This document shows, piece by piece, positions 17,630 through 25,934 of a DNA stretch of 34,147 bases. The translations under genes were made by a program, and so were the position numbers. Every line of letters begins with the position of its first letter. Within the stretch, counting starts at the first letter, position 1. The notes beneath the pieces were generated by a model. It searched no databases. It saw nothing but the letters and a program-made list of their open reading frames with translations, and had not been told where the DNA came from. This stretch comes from Eubacteriales bacterium (GTDB taxonomy: Bacteria; Bacillota; Clostridia; Oscillospirales; CAG-272), in assembly GCA_045547015.1 (NCBI GenBank), contig JAZQDY010000212.1, forward strand, positions 1 through 34,147. Reading direction: 5' to 3'.

Positions 17630-17706
17630 GGAGGCATAGCTCAGCTGGTTAGAGTACTTGCTTGACATGCAAGGGGTCACTGGTTCGATCCCAGTTGTCT
17701 CCACCA
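17630..17706 (+). tRNA. tRNA-Val (anticodon GAC), CCA encoded
   Basis: A hand-folded cloverleaf fits. The acceptor stem is GGAGGCA/TGTCTCC with one G-U pair. The D arm is GCTC..GAGT. The anticodon stem is CTTGC/GCAAG with loop TTGACAT. The T arm is ACTGG-TTCGATC-CCAGT, followed by a discriminator A and CCA. Confidence 0.9.
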
Positions 17707-19097: not shown

Positions 19098-19463
19098 TTG
19101 TACAAGGTTGAGGTATATAAAACAGCGGCAGGAAATGCCCCGGTCAAAGAATACATGCAGGACATTTTGGTAAAACGTCATGGCGTAACTGAACATGCAA
19201 AAGTTAGTTTGTTTATCGAGCGTTTAGAAGAGTACGGGCTGGAGATAAATAAACATTACCCCAGATCCATGAAATATCTTAGGGACGGAGTGTATGAGCT
19301 TCGTCCGGGTGATAACCGCGTATTGTTTTTCTATTGGAGTAGTGAAGGGTACTTCGTCCTGTTGCACTGTTTCAAAAAGAAAAGACAAACGACCCCGCCG
19401 AGAGAAATAGACCAGGCGATAAAAGAGTATAAAGATCATATAAGGAGGAACGGCAATGGCTAA
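19098..19463 (+). CDS. type II toxin, RelE/ParE superfamily, phage Gp49 / HigB-like
   Basis: The sequence MYKVEVYKTAAGNAPVKEYM...YLRDGVYELRPGDNRVLFFYW..GYFVLLHCFKKKRQTTPPREIDQA matches the Gp49-like addiction-module toxin pattern. The start is TTG. It overlaps the next gene by 8 nt. Confidence 0.85.
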   Translation: MYKVEVYKTAAGNAPVKEYMQDILVKRHGVTEHAKVSLFIERLEEYGLEINKHYPRSMKYLRDGVYELRPGDNRVLFFYWSSEGYFVLLHCFKKKRQTTPPREIDQAIKEYKDHIRRNGNG

Positions 19464-19863
19464 GTACACAGTAGATGAAATGTTTAACGAACTGAAAGAA
19501 GATCCACGTTATAGAAAACCAGTTGAGGTTTCTGCAACAGTGTGCCGCATAATTGGGGATATTTCAAAGGCACGGGTAAAGAATAACCTATCTCAAAAGG
19601 AGTTGGCAGAGCTCTGCGGAATGAAGCAGTCTGCTATCGCACGAATTGAAAATATGCACAGCATTCCAAGATTAGATACACTTGCGCGAATTGCTCATGA
19701 AGTAGGAGTAGATATTCATTCATCTGTGTGTGAAACAAAATGTGTAAGAATGCGTATAGGTGCTGTAGAGAAACAGCGTATTGAAACTGCTGCAAAACAG
19801 CAATATCTTTCAAAATCAAAGTATAAATGGCAGCTGGGAGCAGTTTGTGCTATAATCAAATAA
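19456..19863 (+). CDS. XRE-family HTH antitoxin (HigA-like) with a roughly 45-aa C-terminal extension
   Basis: The HTH reads LSQKELAELCGMKQSAIARIENMHSIPRLDTLARIAHEVGVDI. The gene is translationally coupled to the toxin. The tail after the HTH reads SSVCETKCVRMRIGAVEKQRIETAAKQQYLSKSKYKWQLGAVCAIIK. Confidence 0.85.
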   Translation: MAKYTVDEMFNELKEDPRYRKPVEVSATVCRIIGDISKARVKNNLSQKELAELCGMKQSAIARIENMHSIPRLDTLARIAHEVGVDIHSSVCETKCVRMRIGAVEKQRIETAAKQQYLSKSKYKWQLGAVCAIIK

Positions 19864-19943
19864 AGATTGACCATGTTTAATTGGTGCTATTAAATTTTTT
19901 TGGATATAATGTGTCGGTTGATTTAGAAAATTAGGAGTAATAT

Positions 19944-20342
19944 ATGAGTGTTTTTTCAAATATAGAGATAATTACTAATGAAGTTAAAATGACAAACCAT
20001 CAAATGCCTGCTGGGGAATATGAGTTAATACCTACGTTTTCACGCAAGATAGGGAGATTGGCTGGGAATAAATGCTTTACCGAATTGAGTGTTGCGATCA
20101 CCAACACCGAGGAACATCCATTTCCGATTGATCTATATGTACGCATGACCGCTGTATTTTCGATTGATAACATTCCGTCAGAAGATGTTGACAATTTCTT
20201 GGAGATCGATGGAGTGGCTATTCTATACCCATATTTACGATCACTAATTTCATCCGTTGCTGCAAGTGCTTTAATGCCGCCGCTCGTTCTTCCTGTACTT
20301 GACATGGAACTGCTTTTTGAGGATAAAGATTCAGAATCATGA
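19944..20342 (+). CDS. SecB-like chaperone
   Basis: The C-terminal two thirds, DLYVRMTAVFSIDNIPSEDVDNFLEIDGVAILYPYLRSLISSVAASALMPPLVLPVLDMELLF, align by eye to E. coli SecB [63 protein letters not shown]. The RBS is AGGAG. Confidence 0.72.
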   Translation: MSVFSNIEIITNEVKMTNHQMPAGEYELIPTFSRKIGRLAGNKCFTELSVAITNTEEHPFPIDLYVRMTAVFSIDNIPSEDVDNFLEIDGVAILYPYLRSLISSVAASALMPPLVLPVLDMELLFEDKDSES

Positions 20343-20360
20343 CACAATATTAGATTAATG

Positions 20361-20391
20361 CGCCGCCCTTGTAATGGGGCGGCGTTTTTTT
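20361..20391 (+). terminator. intrinsic terminator after the SecB-like gene
   Basis: CGCCGCCC pairs with GGGCGGCG around loop TTGTAATG, followed by TTTTTTT. Confidence 0.75.
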
Positions 20392-20441
20392 GTTGAATTT
20401 TTATGGTTGCCTTTGAAATTGAGACCGGATTTTTGGGTGGG

Positions 20442-22238
20442 TTAATTGGAAATCCATTTGTGAGCGCGCCGGAAGCCGAGGGACTCCGCTTCTGCTACGG
20501 TCATGCAGTATCCTTCGCCTTTCTTTTTATCGATAATAACGCGGTCGTACTGCTGATCGAATGGAAGATGATAAATCTTTTCACCGTTCTTGCCAATGTT
20601 ACATTTTATTTTGGGATAAGGTTTTAACGGGAGATCTTCCCGAACGGTTACATGTAATTCGCGGGCAACTGCATTGGCACACTCGGAGAGGGCAGTGGTT
20701 GTTACAAATAAAGGAATAACGGTTTCTTGTGGGTGATCTATTCGATACAGGATAGTGGATCCATAAAGTTGGAATATGTGCTTTTCGTGGATGGTCTTAT
20801 GCTTATCCCAGCGTTTGCACTGTATTACGTAAACCCTGCCGTCTTTTTTTGCAATGATGTCACGTCCCATGTCGTCGTATCCATCCAGAGCACCACGATA
20901 TTCCACGTCAAAGTCGTGGCTTTCATACACCCATCCAACGTATCGTTCGTACATAATACCGGCCTCCCAAGCGGAGCGGGCGCGTGACTCATAGCGATCC
21001 AACGCAAGCTGGTATTTCTCAACGGTGGAGAGATTGGCGTATTCGGTGGCTGAAATCCAATCCTTCAGACTGTCCCATTCGGTGTCGCCCGTTGGCTCTG
21101 CCAGCATTTCTTTGGTGGGCGGGTCAGTGATGAAATCTTCCAGCCAGGGGAAAGTGTGGGTAAGATAGGATAACTGGCTTTCAAGCATCTTTGCCTTGAA
21201 GGTGGCATCTCGCTTCTCTTTGCTGATCCGTTTTAACTCATCCTTTTTTGTGGTTCGCGGAATTGCATCAATGCGCTTATTGTCGATGGTTTTATAATAT
21301 TCCGCTATGCGTTCTGCGAGCCACGGACTGCTTTGAGAGCGGGTGTTTACGATCTTCTGTATATCAGAGCGTTCGCGGTCGATCTCGGATTTGAGCTTGG
21401 TGCATTGGGTGAGCTCGGAACGTAGTGCTTCGTGGTTGGGTAAGAGAAAAATGCCGAGTTCCAGTGCGAGGGTGTACATGTGTTTGCAAGGTTTGCCTTG
21501 GGTGTTGTATTTGAAATCGGGACAGGTACAGGAAGTGAGCGTGGTTTCGTACTCCGTGCCGTCTTTCGCTGAAATGTATTTGGCACGGGTGAGAATGTCA
21601 GAATGATGTATGCCTTCAGCGAAGGCGTGGTGCAAACGAGTGCAGTCTACATCTTTGCTCCAAGTGTATTCTGATTGGTTTTTTGGAAGGAGAGCACGGC
21701 TCAACTGTTTAGTGTTTGACACCCAGTTTTTAAGATTATTGTAATCGACAGATAATGTACGGAAATTTTCTTGTAGTTTTTGCAATTCCTGCTTGAACTC
21801 TTCGCGTTCTCTGTAAAGCGTAACATTGTGTGAAGAAAAATAATCGTTTCGGCTATTCAATCTTTGTTCAAGTTCGCTTTTGTCGGCGATGAGTAATTCT
21901 ATGCGATTAGTTAAACGAAGAATCTCAGCATTTTTTTCATCAAGAAGATACATCTGTTCTTCGATAATTCGTTTATCATCGGGTGAGCAAGGGGCTTGCT
22001 GAATAATGTTGTGGTACTCCTCAGAGTGTGTTTCACTGGCTTTAAGCAACGCATCATGCGATTTCTTTAAGGAGGAATATTCAGATTCAAGTTTACGTAC
22101 CCTTGGGGCGTCTTGCTCAAATTGTTGCAATCTCTTGTAGCCATCGTAACTTCTGGAAATCCAACAAAAAAAGGAAAATAGAAGAATTAAGCCAACAGGA
22201 AGGGAGAGCACGAAAACAATAACCATCCATTCCGGCAC
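20442..22238 (-). CDS. membrane-anchored coiled-coil protein with a SWIM zinc finger, a Mrr-like PD-(D/E)xK nuclease domain and a C-terminal sunset-like motif
   Basis: The protein is 598 aa.
- TM helix, aa 4-27: WMVIVFVLSLPVGLILLFSFFCWI.
- Heptad-rich region, about aa 35-180.
- SWIM CxCx11CxH: SCTCPDFKYNTQGKPCKHMY, aa 236-254.
- Mrr_cat-like core: YERYVGWVYE...DDMGRDIIAKKDGRVYVIQCKRW.
- C-terminus: IKCNIGKNGEKIYHLPFDQQYD...VAEAESLGFRRAHKW.
The GTG start lies 7 nt after the repressor stop. Confidence 0.8.
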   Translation of the reverse strand: MPEWMVIVFVLSLPVGLILLFSFFCWISRSYDGYKRLQQFEQDAPRVRKLESEYSSLKKSHDALLKASETHSEEYHNIIQQAPCSPDDKRIIEEQMYLLDEKNAEILRLTNRIELLIADKSELEQRLNSRNDYFSSHNVTLYREREEFKQELQKLQENFRTLSVDYNNLKNWVSNTKQLSRALLPKNQSEYTWSKDVDCTRLHHAFAEGIHHSDILTRAKYISAKDGTEYETTLTSCTCPDFKYNTQGKPCKHMYTLALELGIFLLPNHEALRSELTQCTKLKSEIDRERSDIQKIVNTRSQSSPWLAERIAEYYKTIDNKRIDAIPRTTKKDELKRISKEKRDATFKAKMLESQLSYLTHTFPWLEDFITDPPTKEMLAEPTGDTEWDSLKDWISATEYANLSTVEKYQLALDRYESRARSAWEAGIMYERYVGWVYESHDFDVEYRGALDGYDDMGRDIIAKKDGRVYVIQCKRWDKHKTIHEKHIFQLYGSTILYRIDHPQETVIPLFVTTTALSECANAVARELHVTVREDLPLKPYPKIKCNIGKNGEKIYHLPFDQQYDRVIIDKKKGEGYCMTVAEAESLGFRRAHKWISN

Positions 22239-22245
22239 AACACTC

Positions 22246-22872
22246 TCACCTTACCTTACTCAAAAATGCAACAGCCAGTCCGATGATCCGGATGTTCTTG
22301 GCGTCCTTGGCCGTGTATATCTGCGGCTTGATCGCCGGGTTCTCGGCCTGCAGGATCATGCTGTCGCCGTCACGGTACACCCGCTTCAGCGTGGCTTCGT
22401 CGTCTACGAGTACCGCCGCGATCTGTCCGTCGTCTACGTCGTCCTGCTGCTTGATATACACCAGATCGCCATCGTAGATCCGGGCACCGATCATGCTGTC
22501 ACCTTTGCAGCGGAGGCAGAAATCGGCGGTGATGTGAGAGGGAACAGTGACGGTCTGCTCCACGTTCTCCGTGGCGAGAATAGGCGTACCGCAGGCGATG
22601 TCGCCCAGCAGCGGAATCTCGTACGTCTCCGGGAGAGGGAGAATGTTTGCGGCGGCGGGGGAGTTCCTTGTGTTTGGGGAAGTTCTGCCGAGAAGAAAAT
22701 CGACGGTAACGCCGAAATGTTCAGAAATGCTTGTCAGAATTTCCATAGAAGGCATAGTTCCGGTTTCATACTTACCAACGGAGGATCGCTCTACGCCAAT
22801 GATTGTAGCGAGTTGTTCTTGCGTTAATTTGTGTCGCTTGCGAAGAGTTTTTAAATTCTCGGCGAGTGTCAT
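22246..22872 (-). CDS. CI/LexA-like phage repressor (XRE HTH plus S24 peptidase domain)
   Basis: The HTH reads MTLAENLKTLRKRHKLTQEQLATIIGVERSSVGKYETG. The S24 domain reads CKGDSMIGARIYDGDLVYIKQQ...GQIAAVLVDDEATLKRV, with the Ser/Lys dyad. The start is trimmed to the ATG at 22872. Confidence 0.9.
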   Translation of the reverse strand: MTLAENLKTLRKRHKLTQEQLATIIGVERSSVGKYETGTMPSMEILTSISEHFGVTVDFLLGRTSPNTRNSPAAANILPLPETYEIPLLGDIACGTPILATENVEQTVTVPSHITADFCLRCKGDSMIGARIYDGDLVYIKQQDDVDDGQIAAVLVDDEATLKRVYRDGDSMILQAENPAIKPQIYTAKDAKNIRIIGLAVAFLSKVR

Positions 22873-22893
22873 AATGTCACCCCTTTCGAAATA

Positions 22894-22995
22894 ATTATAG
22901 TGAATAAAATTCACTAAGTCAACATATTCTGAAAGAAATTCACAAAAACTATTGACAAGACACATGAATAGCAGTATAATGTGAATGTAATTCAG
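22894..22995. promoter_or_regulatory. divergent lysis-lysogeny switch region: two face-to-back promoters and three operator-like 15-mers
   Basis: Rightward promoter: TTGACA (22952-22957), 17 nt, TATAAT (22975-22980). Leftward promoter: TTGACT (rc of 22917-22922), 17 nt, TATAAT (rc of 22894-22899).
Operators:
- O1: GTGAATAAAATTCAC, 22900-22914
- O2: CTGAAAGAAATTCAC, 22929-22943
- O3: GTGAATGTAATTCAG, 22981-22995. Confidence 0.6.
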
Positions 22996-23026
22996 AAAAA
23001 CAAAGCAAAATGTGAAAGGAGAATGT

Positions 23027-23236
23027 ATGAATATCTTTCAATCAATGAGAAAAGAAGCCGGGATCAGTCAGGCAATGCTTGCAGACAGAGTTGGTGTTGA
23101 GAGATCAACTGTAGCAAAATGGGAGACAGGAACAAGCCTGCCCCGGGCAGATCTTCTGCCGAAGCTGGCGGACGTGCTGGGCTGCACGGTGGACGAATTG
23201 CTCCGTCAGCCGGAACAAAAAGAAACTCCCGCCTGA
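23027..23236 (+). CDS. Cro-like XRE-family HTH regulator
   Basis: MNIFQSMRKEAGISQAMLADRVGVERSTVAKWETGTSLPRADLLPKLADVLGCTVDELL. The RBS AAAGGAG lies upstream of the ATG at 23027. The gene is divergent from the repressor. Confidence 0.85.
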   Translation: MNIFQSMRKEAGISQAMLADRVGVERSTVAKWETGTSLPRADLLPKLADVLGCTVDELLRQPEQKETPA

Positions 23237-23252
23237 TGCGGGAGAGGGAGGA
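23215..23252 (-). repeat. copy 1 of a thrice-repeated hairpin element (minus-strand intrinsic terminator; the plus strand reads hairpin plus AGGGAGG)
   Basis: The sequence is CAAAAAGAAA-CTCCCGC-CTGAT-GCGGGAG-AGGGAGG. On the minus strand the 7-bp GC stem is followed by TTTCTTTTTG. The cro stop codon lies in the loop. Confidence 0.7.
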
Positions 23253-23271
23253 AGGGTGTATGAATTGTCCA

Positions 23272-23309
23272 GAAAAAGGAGCAGCACCCCCGGATGGACA
23301 GGGGTGCTG
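23272..23309 (-). terminator. minus-strand intrinsic terminator
   Basis: The 9-bp stem pairs CAGCACCCC (23282-23290) with GGGGTGCTG (23301-23309). On the minus strand it is followed by CTCCTTTTTCT. There is no T-run on the plus strand. Confidence 0.6.
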
Positions 23310-23418
23310 GCAAAAGATGGGGAGCGAGATAAATGGCTGATTTATCTCGTGATTAGACAGCGGTTAGGCGTCCGCTGACGCAAAGATTTGGATCGCGAAG
23401 CGATTCGGAATCTATAGC
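23272..23418 (-). ncRNA. candidate small RNA of about 147 nt (ORF-less transcription unit), antisense to the post-cro early transcript
   Basis: The unit is bounded by a consensus leftward promoter (23425-23453) and the terminator at 23272-23309. I saw no ATG in the interval. Internal stems are GAGATAAAT/ATTTATCTC (23326-23348) and CAGCGG/CCGCTG. The 5' end is complementary to the SD/start region of the upstream 27-aa ORF. Confidence 0.45.
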
Positions 23419-23424
23419 AAGGTC

Positions 23425-23453
23425 ATTATAGCAAAAATCAAGCATTTTGTCAA
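23425..23453 (-). promoter_or_regulatory. consensus leftward promoter with an extended -10
   Basis: The minus strand reads TTGACA (rc of 23448-23453), 17 nt, then TGcTATAAT (rc of 23425-23433). Confidence 0.6.
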
Positions 23454-23559
23454 TACTCAAGCGAAAGAATCCGGCGTACTACACCAAGCATGAGCGATTG
23501 TGAAAACGGCGGCGCCTAATCCGTGCCTCAACTCGCACGCCGGAAGACGGGGCTATGTC

Positions 23560-23643
23560 TTACTTGCGCTTGCTGTTACAGTATACGCTGTACATAAGGC
23601 CAGCGAATGCGATTGCAATCTGGATAATGCTATAGATGTCCAT
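23560..23643 (-). CDS. 27-aa hydrophobic peptide, type I toxin-like or holin-like (candidate)
   Basis: The peptide is MDIYSIIQIAIAFAGLMYSVYCNSKRK: one TM-length hydrophobic stretch plus a basic tail. AAAGGA lies 11 nt upstream of the ATG. An extended -10 promoter, TGCTATACT (rc of 23688-23696), has TTGCTT 17 nt upstream. The ORF is below the length cutoff of the ORF track. Confidence 0.35.
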   Translation of the reverse strand: MDIYSIIQIAIAFAGLMYSVYCNSKRK

Positions 23644-23712
23644 TTGAATTTCCGCGATCCTTTCTGCTCACCGTGCGGGTAATAAACAGTATAGCACAGA
23701 ACATGACAAAAA

Positions 23713-23756
23713 GCAACAGCAAAAACAAAATCCCGCCTGATGCGGGAGAGGGAGGT
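23713..23756 (-). repeat. copy 2 of the repeated terminator-promoter cassette
   Basis: The sequence is GCAACAGCAAAAACAAAA-TCCCGC-CTGAT-GCGGGA-GAGGGAGG. On the minus strand the hairpin is followed by TTTTGTTTTTG. It lies about 100 nt downstream of the 99-aa leftward ORF and directly upstream of the promoter of the 27-aa ORF. Confidence 0.7.
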
Positions 23757-23854
23757 TTGGTATATGAAGGCATGGGAGAGGGCGCACGCTTTTTGGTGTC
23801 GCCGACGTATGGAGTGGGATGCTTCGCGAAGCAAGTGGTACGTTGACCGTATGG

Positions 23855-24154
23855 TCAGAGTGCCGCGAGGATGGCTTGGGCTTTTTTGTAGGCTGAACGC
23901 GCCACGCACCGGATTTCGAGCGAGTCAAATTCGAGACCGAGCTGCAAGGCGTCAAGAATGACGCGGATTTCGTTTGCGGTGAACGTGGTGAACATCGTGT
24001 AAGTTTCGAGTTTTTGGCACACGGAATTGAATAATGGACCGTATTCACCGGCATCGAGGGCGAAAAACAAAACTGAAAGTTCAATGTTTTCGTTGATATT
24101 GGCGAGAAATTCATAGATAAGATTTATCTCGCGCGGCGTAAACGTATTGCTCAT
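23855..24154 (-). CDS. hypothetical 99-aa protein, leftward-transcribed moron-like gene
   Basis: MSNTFTPREINLIYEFLANINENIELSVLFFALDAGEYGPLFNSVCQKLETYTMFTTFTANEIRVILDALQLGLEFDSLEIRCVARSAYKKAQAILAAL has a balanced, helical-looking composition. The RBS is AAAGGA. Its own promoter reads TTGCAT, 17 nt, TGcTATAAT (rc of 24188-24216). Its terminator is repeat copy 2. Confidence 0.6.
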   Translation of the reverse strand: MSNTFTPREINLIYEFLANINENIELSVLFFALDAGEYGPLFNSVCQKLETYTMFTTFTANEIRVILDALQLGLEFDSLEIRCVARSAYKKAQAILAAL

Positions 24155-24212
24155 GAAGGTGAATTCCTTTCGGCTATAGATGGTTTAATTATAGCACGGA
24201 GAGGAACCAAAT

Positions 24213-24256
24213 GCAACAACAAAAAGAAACTCCCGCCTGATGCGGGAGAGGGAGGA
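24213..24256 (-). repeat. copy 3 of the repeated terminator-promoter cassette
   Basis: The sequence is GCAACAACAAAAAGAAA-CTCCCGC-CTGAT-GCGGGAG-AGGGAGG. The core is identical to copy 1. The TCCCGCCTGA cores start at 23227, 23731 and 24231. Confidence 0.7.
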
Positions 24257-24260
24257 AATC

Positions 24261-24569
24261 ATGGGAATAAGAGTAAGAGTGCCGCCGATTGTGAGCGTGG
24301 AAGTGGCTGTTCGGGTGTACTGGAGTTATCCGGAGCTTGGGAATCCGCAGCTGGCGGAGCTTTTCGGGAAAAGATCGCCAAATACATACTCCAGCCTAAA
24401 AAAAGCGGCCTGGGAAGTCATGCGGGAAGATGATATGTTTTCCACAAATGCAAGTCGAGTGAATACCGATGCCGCGTACCGTGCATGGGGACTTGACATT
24501 GACGATCTGACGAAAAGATACACTCGTTTGCAGAGGATCGGCGTGATTCCAAAGGAGAGGCGGACATGA
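24261..24569 (+). CDS. hypothetical early protein (102 aa)
   Basis: The ATG at 24261 lies 6 nt after the AGGGAGG of repeat copy 3. This is the first gene of a tightly overlapping rightward operon. Confidence 0.6.
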   Translation: MGIRVRVPPIVSVEVAVRVYWSYPELGNPQLAELFGKRSPNTYSSLKKAAWEVMREDDMFSTNASRVNTDAAYRAWGLDIDDLTKRYTRLQRIGVIPKERRT

Positions 24570-24913
24570 GCCGGCCGTGGATGAGTGACGGGGACATCGT
24601 AATGATGTACCGGCAGGCGAAGTCTCCGCCGCAAGAGATCAAGGTGCTTGCCGAGTTGAACGGCGTTACCCGGGACGTGATCGTGGAGATCCTTAAGCGG
24701 AACGGGGTGGATATGCTGACGAAAGGGCAGAGATCCGGAAAGAAAAAGGCTCCGCGGTGGACGGCGGAGCAGGATGCGATTCTCGTGGACATGCTGTCGG
24801 CGGGAGCAAGCTACACGGCGATCGCGGAAAGAATCGCCAGAAGCAGGTATGCAGTTAAAACGCGGGTGTATACACTCGGGATGAACCAGAAGAAATATGT
24901 TAAAGGAGATTAA
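24566..24913 (+). CDS. putative DNA-binding protein with two HTH/Myb-like segments
   Basis: The start overlaps the upstream stop (ATGA) and the RBS is AAGGAGAGG. The segments are EIKVLAELNGVTRDVIVEILKRNG and WTAEQDAILVDMLSAGASYTAIAERIARSRYAVKTRVYTLG. Confidence 0.55.
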   Translation: MSRPWMSDGDIVMMYRQAKSPPQEIKVLAELNGVTRDVIVEILKRNGVDMLTKGQRSGKKKAPRWTAEQDAILVDMLSAGASYTAIAERIARSRYAVKTRVYTLGMNQKKYVKGD

Positions 24914-24916
24914 ACC

Positions 24917-25189
24917 ATGAAGTACAATATTACGATCAAGGACAACGAAACCGGCGAGGTAGTGCAGGCTTTCGACACGAATGCCATTATCGGAGCGATA
25001 GGAGCCGGAAAGGGAAGGGCACGCGGAATCTTCTTAACGGAGTGCACGAAAACTGAGATAGCAGAGGCGGTGCTGGCTGCGACGAAAATCGTGGATACCG
25101 TGGTAGAAGAAGACAAAGAACTGGAACTGCTTGTTATGTTGAGTGGAATCAAGCAGATGAAAGCCGGAAAGGTCGGGGATTCGCTGTGA
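24917..25189 (+). CDS. hypothetical protein (90 aa)
   Basis: The RBS is AAAGGAG. The gene is packed in the operon. I recognise no family. Confidence 0.55.
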   Translation: MKYNITIKDNETGEVVQAFDTNAIIGAIGAGKGRARGIFLTECTKTEIAEAVLAATKIVDTVVEEDKELELLVMLSGIKQMKAGKVGDSL

Positions 25190-25632
25190 AGGTAAAGATA
25201 CGGCCGCACAATCTGCCAGCGGCACAGAGAGGTGAGCTGGAACGTGCGGCGCGGGAGTACATAGCTCAGGAGTTGGAGGCGTATTCCAAAAAACTGAAAT
25301 GGATACTCCTACGGCGAATGGTATATGCAGTATGCCTTGCTTTGTCTGACCAGTACGGATTTGGTTCCAAGCGATGCCAGCGGGTGGTAGACGGTGCCGT
25401 GGAAATCATCACCGGTGTCTCCGAGGACGTATACAGGAAGGGCGAAATCGATCCGGACGGCGTAGACAAGGCAGCCGATAATATGCTGGCGGAGCTTGCG
25501 GACAGAGGGATAGAGATCGTTATTGAGGGGGACGACCTCTACGACGATACCAGGAAAATCAACGAAAGAAAGGAAAAAGAAATCGCCTCCGGTGCTGGCA
25601 CACGCGGAAGCGACAAGGTAATAACCCAATGA
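25186..25632 (+). CDS. hypothetical protein (148 aa)
   Basis: The GTG start overlaps the upstream stop. Composition looks coding. Confidence 0.55.
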   Translation: MKVKIRPHNLPAAQRGELERAAREYIAQELEAYSKKLKWILLRRMVYAVCLALSDQYGFGSKRCQRVVDGAVEIITGVSEDVYRKGEIDPDGVDKAADNMLAELADRGIEIVIEGDDLYDDTRKINERKEKEIASGAGTRGSDKVITQ

Positions 25633-25934
25633 AATTATATCAGATTCGAAAGATTTTGTCAAGGGACGTCCTGGAAACGGCGGCGGGGTACATCCTGCCG
25701 GCGGTGCTGGTGGTGGATATCAAAGCCGGGCTGTGCTTCTTCGCCATGACGGGCGGTGCACAGTTGACGGGCGGGGGCATGGCACTTGCGGTGTTTTTCG
25801 CTTTGCAGATTGCCGTATGCCTCGCCGCTGTGGTCTCAGGTGTGGTTTGTGTATGGAAGCGGGCGCGGATGCCAAAACGGTATGGCGTCATTCAGCCGGA
25901 GACGATCCGGCAGCTGCTGGAGGGGCGGAGATGA
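25629..25934 (+). CDS. hypothetical small membrane protein (101 aa, about 2-3 TM)
   Basis: The start overlaps the upstream stop (ATGA). Hydrophobic stretches are ILPAVLVVDIKAGLCFFAM and ALAVFFALQIAVCLAAVVSGVVCVW. Confidence 0.55.
   Translation: MKLYQIRKILSRDVLETAAGYILPAVLVVDIKAGLCFFAMTGGAQLTGGGMALAVFFALQIAVCLAAVVSGVVCVWKRARMPKRYGVIQPETIRQLLEGRR

Follow-up and report, generated by a model that had tools for sequence, protein, structure and literature searches.

The stretch of DNA analysed here, denoted as the window, comprises 34,147 nt of contig JAZQDY010000212.1 from a Eubacteriales bacterium (assembly GCA_045547015.1) and contains an integrated element with a CI/Cro-type genetic switch. 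At the end of the cro-type helix-turn-helix (HTH) gene of this element, and at two further junctions to its right, lies a short repeat that will be referred to as R. The 25-nt core of R, TCCCGCCTGATGCGGGAGAGGGAGG, starts at positions 23227, 23731 and 24231 of the plus strand, with spacings of 504 and 500 bp, and the three copies enclose two units of small genes, A (between copies 1 and 2) and B (between copies 2 and 3). The window harbors 3 copies of the core against a shuffle expectation of 0 (100 shuffles), and no further match with up to 3 mismatches is found window-wide, including the 17.6 kb of host DNA. A preliminary description had reported the same three positions and spacings, and these are indeed exact matches that do not arise by chance. 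As will be argued below, R is probably a two-stranded composite junction element, the repetition of which supplies homology for the shuffling of cassettes.

Copies 2 and 3 can be aligned over 66 nt (23690-23755 and 24190-24255) with 83% identity, and copies 1 and 3 have the exact 40-mer AACAAAAAGAAACTCCCGCCTGATGCGGGAGAGGGAGGAA in common. In a consensus terminator scan, each of the three copies is called as a terminator-like site, always on the minus strand and never on the plus strand. The minus-strand sites consist of a GC stem of 6-7 bp, a 5-nt loop and the tail TTTCTTTTTG or TTTTGTTTTT, with hairpin energies for 49-nt segments of -13.3 kcal/mol in copies 1 and 3 and -11.9 kcal/mol in copy 2. 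On the plus strand the stem is followed at its 3' side by AGAGGGAGG instead of a U-run, with a start codon 4-8 nt further. The hallmarks of an intrinsic terminator (GC stem, short loop and adjoining U-run) are hence found together on the minus strand in 3/3 copies and not on the plus strand. Scan and folds are in agreement with the earlier assignment of a GC hairpin with T-run to the minus strand of each copy, and sequence and scan with that of the plus strand, where no T-run is present and the Shine-Dalgarno (SD) sequence AGGGAGG then serves at least the gene at 24261. The leftward promoters attributed to copies 2 and 3 are present as well: in copy 2 the motif reads TTGCTT, a 17-nt spacer and TGCTATACT, in copy 3 TTGCAT, a 17-nt spacer and TGCTATAAT (Table 1).

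Table 1. Features of the window, ordered by position; coordinates refer to the window.
Feature	Position	Strand	Remarks
Host DNA	first ~17.6 kb		followed by tRNA gene and integrated element
tRNA gene	17630-17703		borders the integrated element
Tyrosine integrase			tRNA-adjacent, at the end of the element, 4 kb from R; sole recombinase recognised in the window
CI-type repressor	22246..22872	-	Pfam HTH_3 PF01381 1.7e-14 and Peptidase_S24 PF00717 1.4e-28
Genetic switch	22894..22995		promoter scan: rightward promoter TTGACA-17-TATAAT 22952-22980; leftward promoter 22922-22894
Operator-like sites GTGAATnnnATTCAC	22900, 22929, 22981		3 sites in the switch (operator pattern search)
cro-type HTH gene, 69 aa	23027..23236	+	Pfam HTH_3 1.3e-16; ends ..EQKETPA; stop TGA 23234-23236 inside copy 1
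R copy 1	23214..23263		A-run 23214-23225, hairpin 23226-23244, SD AGGGAGG 23245-23251; no promoter
R copy 1, right end	23256-23263		vestigial start GTGTATGA of a 65-aa-type gene
Unit A cargo	23265..23687	-	27-aa open reading frame (ORF), predicted small RNA (sRNA), strong terminator; absent from L038, L043, L045
27-aa hydrophobic ORF MDIYSIIQIAIAFAGLMYSVYCNSKRK	23643-23560	-	KRK tail; from ORF list
sRNA promoter	23453-23425	-	12/12 consensus, TG-extended; promoter scan
Predicted sRNA, ~145 nt	~23418-23275	-	same strand as 27-aa ORF
Unit A terminator	23309-23282	-	fold -21.7 kcal/mol, z -5.4
R copy 2	23688..23755	-	-10 TATACT 23693-23688 (TG-extended), -35 TTGCTT 23716-23711, U-run template 23730-23717
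R copy 2, hairpin and SD	23731-23747; 23748-23755	SD +	
65-aa ORF	23764..23961	+	SD of copy 2; convergent overlap with 3' end of 99-aa gene, 23855-23961
99-aa gene (unit B)	23855..24154	-	third-codon-position substitution bias, e.g. 12:9:39
R copy 3	24188..24255	-	-10 TATAAT 24193-24188 (TG-extended), -35 TTGCAT 24216-24211, U-run template 24229-24217
R copy 3, hairpin and SD	24230-24248; 24249-24255	SD +	
102-aa gene	24261..24569	+	uses SD of copy 3
115-aa gene, GcrA/Myb-like	24566-24913		right of the 102-aa gene
Further genes of the element	further right		PcfK/PcfJ-like, DUF3102 and ASCH genes, replication initiator

The core of R comprises the last 7-9 codons and the stop codon of cro-type HTH genes. 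Copy 1 is consequently not intergenic: the cro frame reads ...CAA AAA GAA ACT CCC GCC TGA, with the A-run encoding QKE, the 5' arm of the hairpin encoding TPA and the TGA stop located in the hairpin loop. Copies 2 and 3 keep the cro tail and its stop codon without the gene body (MQQQKETPA and KQQQKQNPA, respectively, each followed by the stop), and in both of them the tail is fused directly to the -35 hexamer of the leftward promoter. The earlier notion of an insulated terminator-plus-promoter cassette thus applies to copies 2 and 3, which are such composites, but neither to the core itself, being the 3' end of an HTH gene, nor to the promoterless copy 1.

In order to compare the arrangement with that of other phages, relatives (denoted by L numbers) were drawn from the contigs of homologues of the 99-aa protein and from loci found with a cro alignment in species-representative genomes; when HTH2-type proteins were aligned together with the cro type, the divergence was too great for use in a locus search. 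Reversed loci are read in the orientation of the window. The 798-nt ENA contig L001 encodes at positions ~1-140 a peptide that we take, from our own reading of the translation, to be ClpB-like; it is probably a chimeric metagenome assembly, and its phage part only was used.

The relatives differ in the number and order of their cassettes. L043 and L045, both from metagenome-assembled genomes (MAGs) of Clostridia/Eubacteriales, show the arrangement cro-R-gene X with 0 cassettes. L038 and L039, which stem from two independent samples, are organised as cro-R-B-R-gene X, where B consists of the rightward 65-aa ORF, the leftward 99-aa gene and the promoter. In L042 a rightward HTH2 gene is added (cro-R-B-HTH2-R-gene X), and in L044 a further unit (cro-R-B-R-A'-R-gene X), A' being a homologue of the small hydrophobic ORF with homologous promoter and 5' untranslated region. 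The window itself reads cro-R-A-R-B-R-gene Y, so that L044 and the window contain the same two cargo types in opposite order. The cro-type and HTH2-type proteins of L042 are 26-32% identical, and both end in ..EQKETPA encoded by the same R DNA, which identifies R as a shared module of gene 3' end plus junction.

The breakpoints of these insertions, deletions and reorderings lie within R. Up to R, the identity between L044 and L043 is 98.5%; there a 746-nt insertion bounded by R follows, and homology resumes in the 3' arm of the hairpin. Window positions 23265-23719 are without counterpart in L038, and the gap is flanked by R1 and R2. L001, L038 and L042 part from the window directly after GGGAGAGGG; to the right of this sequence the window contains the 102-aa gene, and L001, L038, L042, L043, L044 and L045 contain an unrelated gene, for which the gene calls in L038 and L042 give 86 or 91 aa. 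According to BLAST, the window and L038, L039 and L042 rejoin at the start of the 115-aa gene (24564-24566), and the same start sequence is found after gene X in L045. Furthermore, R2 of the window is chimeric, its left half CAAAAACAAAATCCCGCCTGA corresponding to the L038 variant and its right half TGCGGGAGAGGGAGG to the variant of the window and L042, which is what a crossover inside R would produce. Copies of R within one genome share private loops (CTGAT in the window, CTGAG in L038, CTGA in copies 1-2 of L044), and such private variants fit duplication in situ or gene conversion. The tentative proposal of the preliminary description that R may be a recombination boundary for module exchange therefore gains most from the comparison, since the relatives hold 0, 1 or 2 cassettes in both orders with breakpoints inside R; it is the best-supported part of an architecture that was largely right.

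In the more distant relatives L040 and L041 (reverse complement) a longer array is observed, in which leftward genes alternate with rightward HTH genes. The latter end in an R-like tail, ..E(E/Q)K(Q/E)TPA followed by the stop, and small rightward membrane-peptide ORFs follow. This array suggests stacked divergent modules, each made of a leftward gene and an HTH gene.

The promoter motif TTGnnn-17-TGnTATAMT accompanies every R that has a leftward gene on its left side, always with the same offset from the T-run: R2 and R3 of the window, L001, L038_B, L044_3 and L040_431, which together carry 4 different cargos. Copies of R bordered on the left by an HTH gene lack it. Copy 2 of L030 has the motif, too. 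An A-run, GC hairpin and SD right after cro, with hairpin sequences unrelated to R, occur in L030, L053, L160 and L179. L030 contains 3 copies of its hairpin, two of them with adjoining leftward promoters, and its minus-strand hairpins reach about -16 kcal/mol; behind the post-cro hairpins of L053, L160 and L179 the scan for leftward genes was obscured by ORF noise at that GC range. These layouts suggest that closing cro with a terminator for leftward transcription only is a recurrent design, which would shield cro and the switch from convergent transcripts; in the lineage of the window it would have been fused to a promoter and repeated.

R is restricted to the phage lineage of the window. 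The exact core has 0 matches in 185,579 species genomes and 0 in IMG/VR, and the 7 matches in a scan of JGI metagenomes are all due to chance, lying inside one unrelated coding sequence (presumably that of a PlsC-type acyltransferase, by our own reading of its translation). Among 122 loci a 20-mer of R occurs only beside cro-type or HTH2 genes of the window lineage. GenBank phages (INPHARED) contain nothing similar except a 239-nt piece of the repressor gene, and exact look-ups of the cro, 102-aa and CI proteins of the window gave no match.

The two units carry different cargos. In unit B, substitutions concentrated at third codon positions argue well for the 99-aa frame as a genuine leftward gene. 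Its product has homologues in only 3 clusters among 5.8 billion proteins and no match in Pfam, PHROG or NCBIfam; the AlphaFold2 model is poor (predicted local distance difference test score, pLDDT, 66.8) and found no Foldseek match, the best PDB hit having E = 1.8. The rightward 65-aa ORF behind copy 2 is open and ungapped in 6 sequences (the window, L038, L042, L044, L040 and L041) and corresponds to the C-terminal part of a 155-aa ORF in L040 and L041. The frame is probably real, but less well supported than the 99-aa gene: its third-position bias is weak and database homologues were not found. With this ORF the island contains a rightward element behind copy 2 and is not leftward throughout, contrary to what had been supposed, although the leftward features named at that time (the 99-aa and 27-aa ORFs and the promoter and terminator of an sRNA) are all present in the ORF list and the scans.

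Unit A resembles a type I toxin-antitoxin moron in tandem orientation. The first ~40 nt of the predicted sRNA are complementary to the SD and first codons of the 27-aa ORF, the putative toxin, pairing CGCGAUCC with GGAUCGCG and UGCUAUAGAU with AUCUAUAGCA. The duplex of the sRNA 5' end with the SD-start region of the toxin amounts to -36.2 kcal/mol, compared to -17.2 +/- 3.3 kcal/mol for shuffles, of which 0/2000 reach it; other GC-rich segments of the window reach -34, so that the duplex energy alone is not decisive. Whole-RNA duplex energies between sRNA and toxin are uninformative. A read-through toxin transcript would hold the sRNA segment in cis, and its minimum-energy fold pairs this segment with the start region. 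The homologue of unit A in L044 is without the sRNA, and a search of 22800-25800 gave no Rfam match at E <= 1. With the type I toxin-antitoxin modules of Clostridia prophages (PMC7699646, PMC6563280) unit A would share a small hydrophobic peptide with basic tail on a prophage as well as a predicted, strongly promoted small RNA complementary to the SD and start of the putative toxin. Unlike in these modules, the two RNAs of unit A lie in tandem on the same strand and do not overlap in antisense. Known families show no sequence similarity to unit A, and the role of the toxin is predicted from sequence.

With respect to the remainder of the element, the operator pattern search found no operator-like sites near the cassette promoters. 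Between the window (22245-23110) and L038 and L042, DNA identity is 82-97% in the S24 portion at the C-terminal end of the repressor and in the 3' half of cro (92-97% for the repressor portion alone); DNA similarity is not detectable in the HTH domain of the repressor, in the operators and in the 5' half of cro. This pattern looks like a swap of immunity specificity inside otherwise shared genes. Possible accessory or defence genes of the element lie between integrase and repressor (19098-22238), namely a Gp49(HigB-like)/HTH pair, a SecB-like gene and a gene whose 598-aa product combines SWIM and Mrr_cat nuclease domains. At the junction of the genes 25186-25632 and 25629-25934 a second 12/12 TG-extended leftward promoter is found on the minus strand (TTGACA at 25662 to TATAAT at 25634); it is followed within 25560-25662 by a hairpin GCUUCCG..CGGAGGC and a U-rich run, which could give rise to a ~70-nt antisense RNA of the OOP type, directed at the 3' end of the 148-aa gene. 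A terminator-like hairpin with T-run on the minus strand is also located within the coding sequence of the 115-aa gene (24749-24770), at its KKKAPRW linker. L042 and L045 have the corresponding plus-strand sequence, ggaaagaaaaagGCTCCGCGGTGGACGGCGGAGCagg, unchanged; in these relatives the N-terminal part of the 115-aa gene is duplicated or fused to other sequence.

Taken together, we consider it the most probable explanation (roughly 70%) that R combines functions on both strands and that its repetition provides the homology for cassette shuffling. On the plus strand, read by the early operon from the cro promoter, R contains the last codons of a cro-type HTH gene, with its stop codon in the hairpin loop, and behind these the SD for the rightward gene that comes next; rightward transcription should pass R because the plus-strand hairpin is without a U-run. 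On the minus strand, hairpin and U-run would form an intrinsic terminator for leftward transcription. In copies 2 and 3 a promoter with TG-extended -10 element is located within a few bases, for which the T-rich run may double as the AT-rich stretch upstream of the -35 element. With terminator and promoter both placed in R, each leftward cargo would have its own promoter and be closed by the next R to the left, and leftward transcripts would be stopped before running antisense into cro, the switch and cI. Since the same 40-66 bp are present at successive gene junctions, they offer homology for general or phage-recombinase-mediated recombination, by which cargos may be inserted, deleted and reordered.

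Several observations weigh against this explanation. Termination and promoter activity are deduced from motifs, expression in the lysogen and the pathway of recombination being likewise inferential, and we hold the role as recombination boundary with higher confidence than the two activities. The z-scores of the R hairpins against shuffles are modest (-1.2 to -2.0), and its -35 hexamers match the consensus at 3/6 positions only, which is the reason why the promoters of copies 2 and 3 are not listed by a generic promoter scan. In copy 1 the A-run also encodes EQKE, a constraint that leaves its conservation uninformative with respect to a U-tract. Stem wobbles are distributed in a mixed manner, the pair being kept on the minus-strand RNA only in L038_B and on the plus-strand RNA only in L044_2 and L030, and clean compensatory changes in the stem are not seen because the R family is of recent origin and its members resemble each other closely. 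The relatives are for the most part short contigs from metagenomes or contigs of MAGs. Finally, unequal exchange between phages and the excision and insertion of circles fit the data alike.

The first alternative, which we regard as unlikely, is that R is a passive scar, copies 2 and 3 being leftover duplicates of the cro 3' end from module joining or from deletion of an HTH2 gene and having no regulatory role. That these copies hold the last codons and stop of cro without a gene body would follow directly from such an origin, as would the 10 further bases of cro coding sequence repeated in R2 of L044; moreover, L042 has an intact HTH2 gene ending in R at the same position, and in a young family conservation could mirror recency. 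Against a scar speak the recurrence of the A-run, hairpin and SD layout after cro with unrelated sequences in L030, L053, L160 and L179, and the promoter at constant offset before 4 different cargos. Loop indels (4, 5 and 18 nt) have also left the hairpin intact in variants of R, and the divergent R-like copies of L040 and L041 pair in a shifted register.

It appears still less probable that R acts as an RNA element on the rightward transcript, be it as a nut/boxB-like loading site, by stabilising the mRNA or directing its processing, or by linking the end of cro translation to initiation at the following SD. The nutR site of lambda lies just downstream of cro, as does copy 1; an SD follows directly after every copy, each phage has its own hairpin sequence in several copies (window versus L030), and L044_2 and L030 are the variants fully paired on the plus-strand RNA only. 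Against this, the loop varies in sequence and length (CTGAT, CTGAG, CTGA and an 18-nt insertion), which argues against a sequence-specific contact between protein and loop like that of N with boxB, and no N-like or Q-like protein was recognised. L043 and L045 manage with a single copy, no Rfam family matches, and the conserved T-run and adjoining promoter are features of the minus strand.

A site for a dedicated site-specific recombinase, comparable to attC in an integron cassette array, is suggested at first sight by short cassettes that are each bounded by a hairpin repeat, by their variable order and by the empty sites; one cassette is toxin-antitoxin-like, and toxin-antitoxin cassettes are common in chromosomal integrons. 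We nevertheless judge this very improbable. The only recombinase in the window is the integrase beside the tRNA gene, with no integron integrase adjacent to the cassettes, and the R hairpin of 17-19 nt is far shorter than the long palindromes of attC sites. In addition, the shared extent varies from junction to junction, that of R2 in L044 reaching 10 nt further to the left and right edges ending at different bases, which fits homologous exchange and not a fixed cleavage point. A generic REP- or MITE-like host repeat (repetitive extragenic palindromic or miniature inverted-repeat transposable element), the possibility by which the preliminary description had proposed to judge itself, can practically be dismissed: R is a short palindromic repeat in intergenic positions, but the 17.6 kb of host DNA and the rest of the window hold no copies, the species genomes and IMG/VR no exact ones, the JGI matches are unrelated, and the 20-mer occurs among the 122 loci only in the window lineage, as described above.

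The closest described analogue of R is the PeSL (promoter-early stem-loop) of T4-like phages, which is composed of an early promoter, an AT-rich stretch and a stem-loop terminator together with an upstream stop codon and a downstream SD (PMC2839356, PMC4122927). PeSLs border ORFans, and the indels that distinguish phi1 from RB49 are explained by recombination between PeSL copies (PMC2839356); their promoter activity, terminator activity and mini-circles have been demonstrated experimentally (PMC2839356; PMC4122927). Similarly, R is a short repeated composite of a sigma-70-type promoter motif, an AT-rich stretch, a stem-loop, a stop codon and an SD, it flanks small genes of unknown function, and indels and replacements between close relatives are bounded by it, with recombination between copies being proposed. 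R has, however, no sequence relationship to PeSLs, resides in a temperate CI/Cro-controlled element of gut Clostridia instead of a lytic T4-like myovirus, and is present in 1-3 copies as compared to ~50. Stop codon and SD are on one strand of R and the terminator and promoter motifs on the other, so that the cargos face against the early operon, and the core of R belongs to the 3' coding end of cro-type genes. Whereas the activities and mini-circles of PeSLs have been seen by experiment, R is known here from its sequence.

For lambdoid phages, too, conserved boundary (linker) sequences have been described where modules meet (Susskind & Botstein 1978; Clark et al. 2001, cited in PMC3029335). 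R is alike in being short, conserved, located at gene boundaries and a source of homology for the exchange of unrelated modules, and differs in that it is repeated within one genome, carries regulatory signals and reaches into a coding end. Units A and B both have promoter and terminator motifs of their own, and unit B, like unit A, is missing in L043 and L045. In this they are reminiscent of the morons of lambdoid prophages, reportedly described by Juhala et al. in 2000, which are additional genes that separate neighbours of related phages and bring along a promoter and a terminator. As with morons, the GC content of the cassettes (0.485-0.489) is slightly below that of the flanks (0.51-0.54). 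Contrary to morons, the two units lie within the early operon on the opposite strand and share one repeated promoter-terminator unit.

A bolder and, taken as a whole, doubtful extension would be that the units flanked by R are actively mobile cassettes of temperate phages in gut Clostridia, PeSL- or integron-like but moved by homologous recombination. These would stack cargos expressed in the lysogen head-on within the early operon, to be silenced upon induction by convergent transcription, and one of them would be a new type I toxin-antitoxin system in tandem on the same strand, the antitoxin RNA of which is also the 3' part of the toxin transcript.

As a shuffling junction, R belongs to the known PeSL-like kind and does not constitute a new category of system. 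If the proposed explanation is true, shuffling at composite promoter-terminator motifs would extend beyond the lytic T4-like phages of Gram-negative bacteria into temperate phages of gut Clostridia. One sequence of 40-66 bp would then serve as the end of a gene, the translation start of the next one, the site of termination and initiation on the opposite strand and the crossover point for cargos. It would furthermore offer prophages a route to gain small genes expressed in the lysogen, such as the toxin-antitoxin-like unit and the orphan 99-aa gene, and it suggests how induction could silence the genes of the cassettes.

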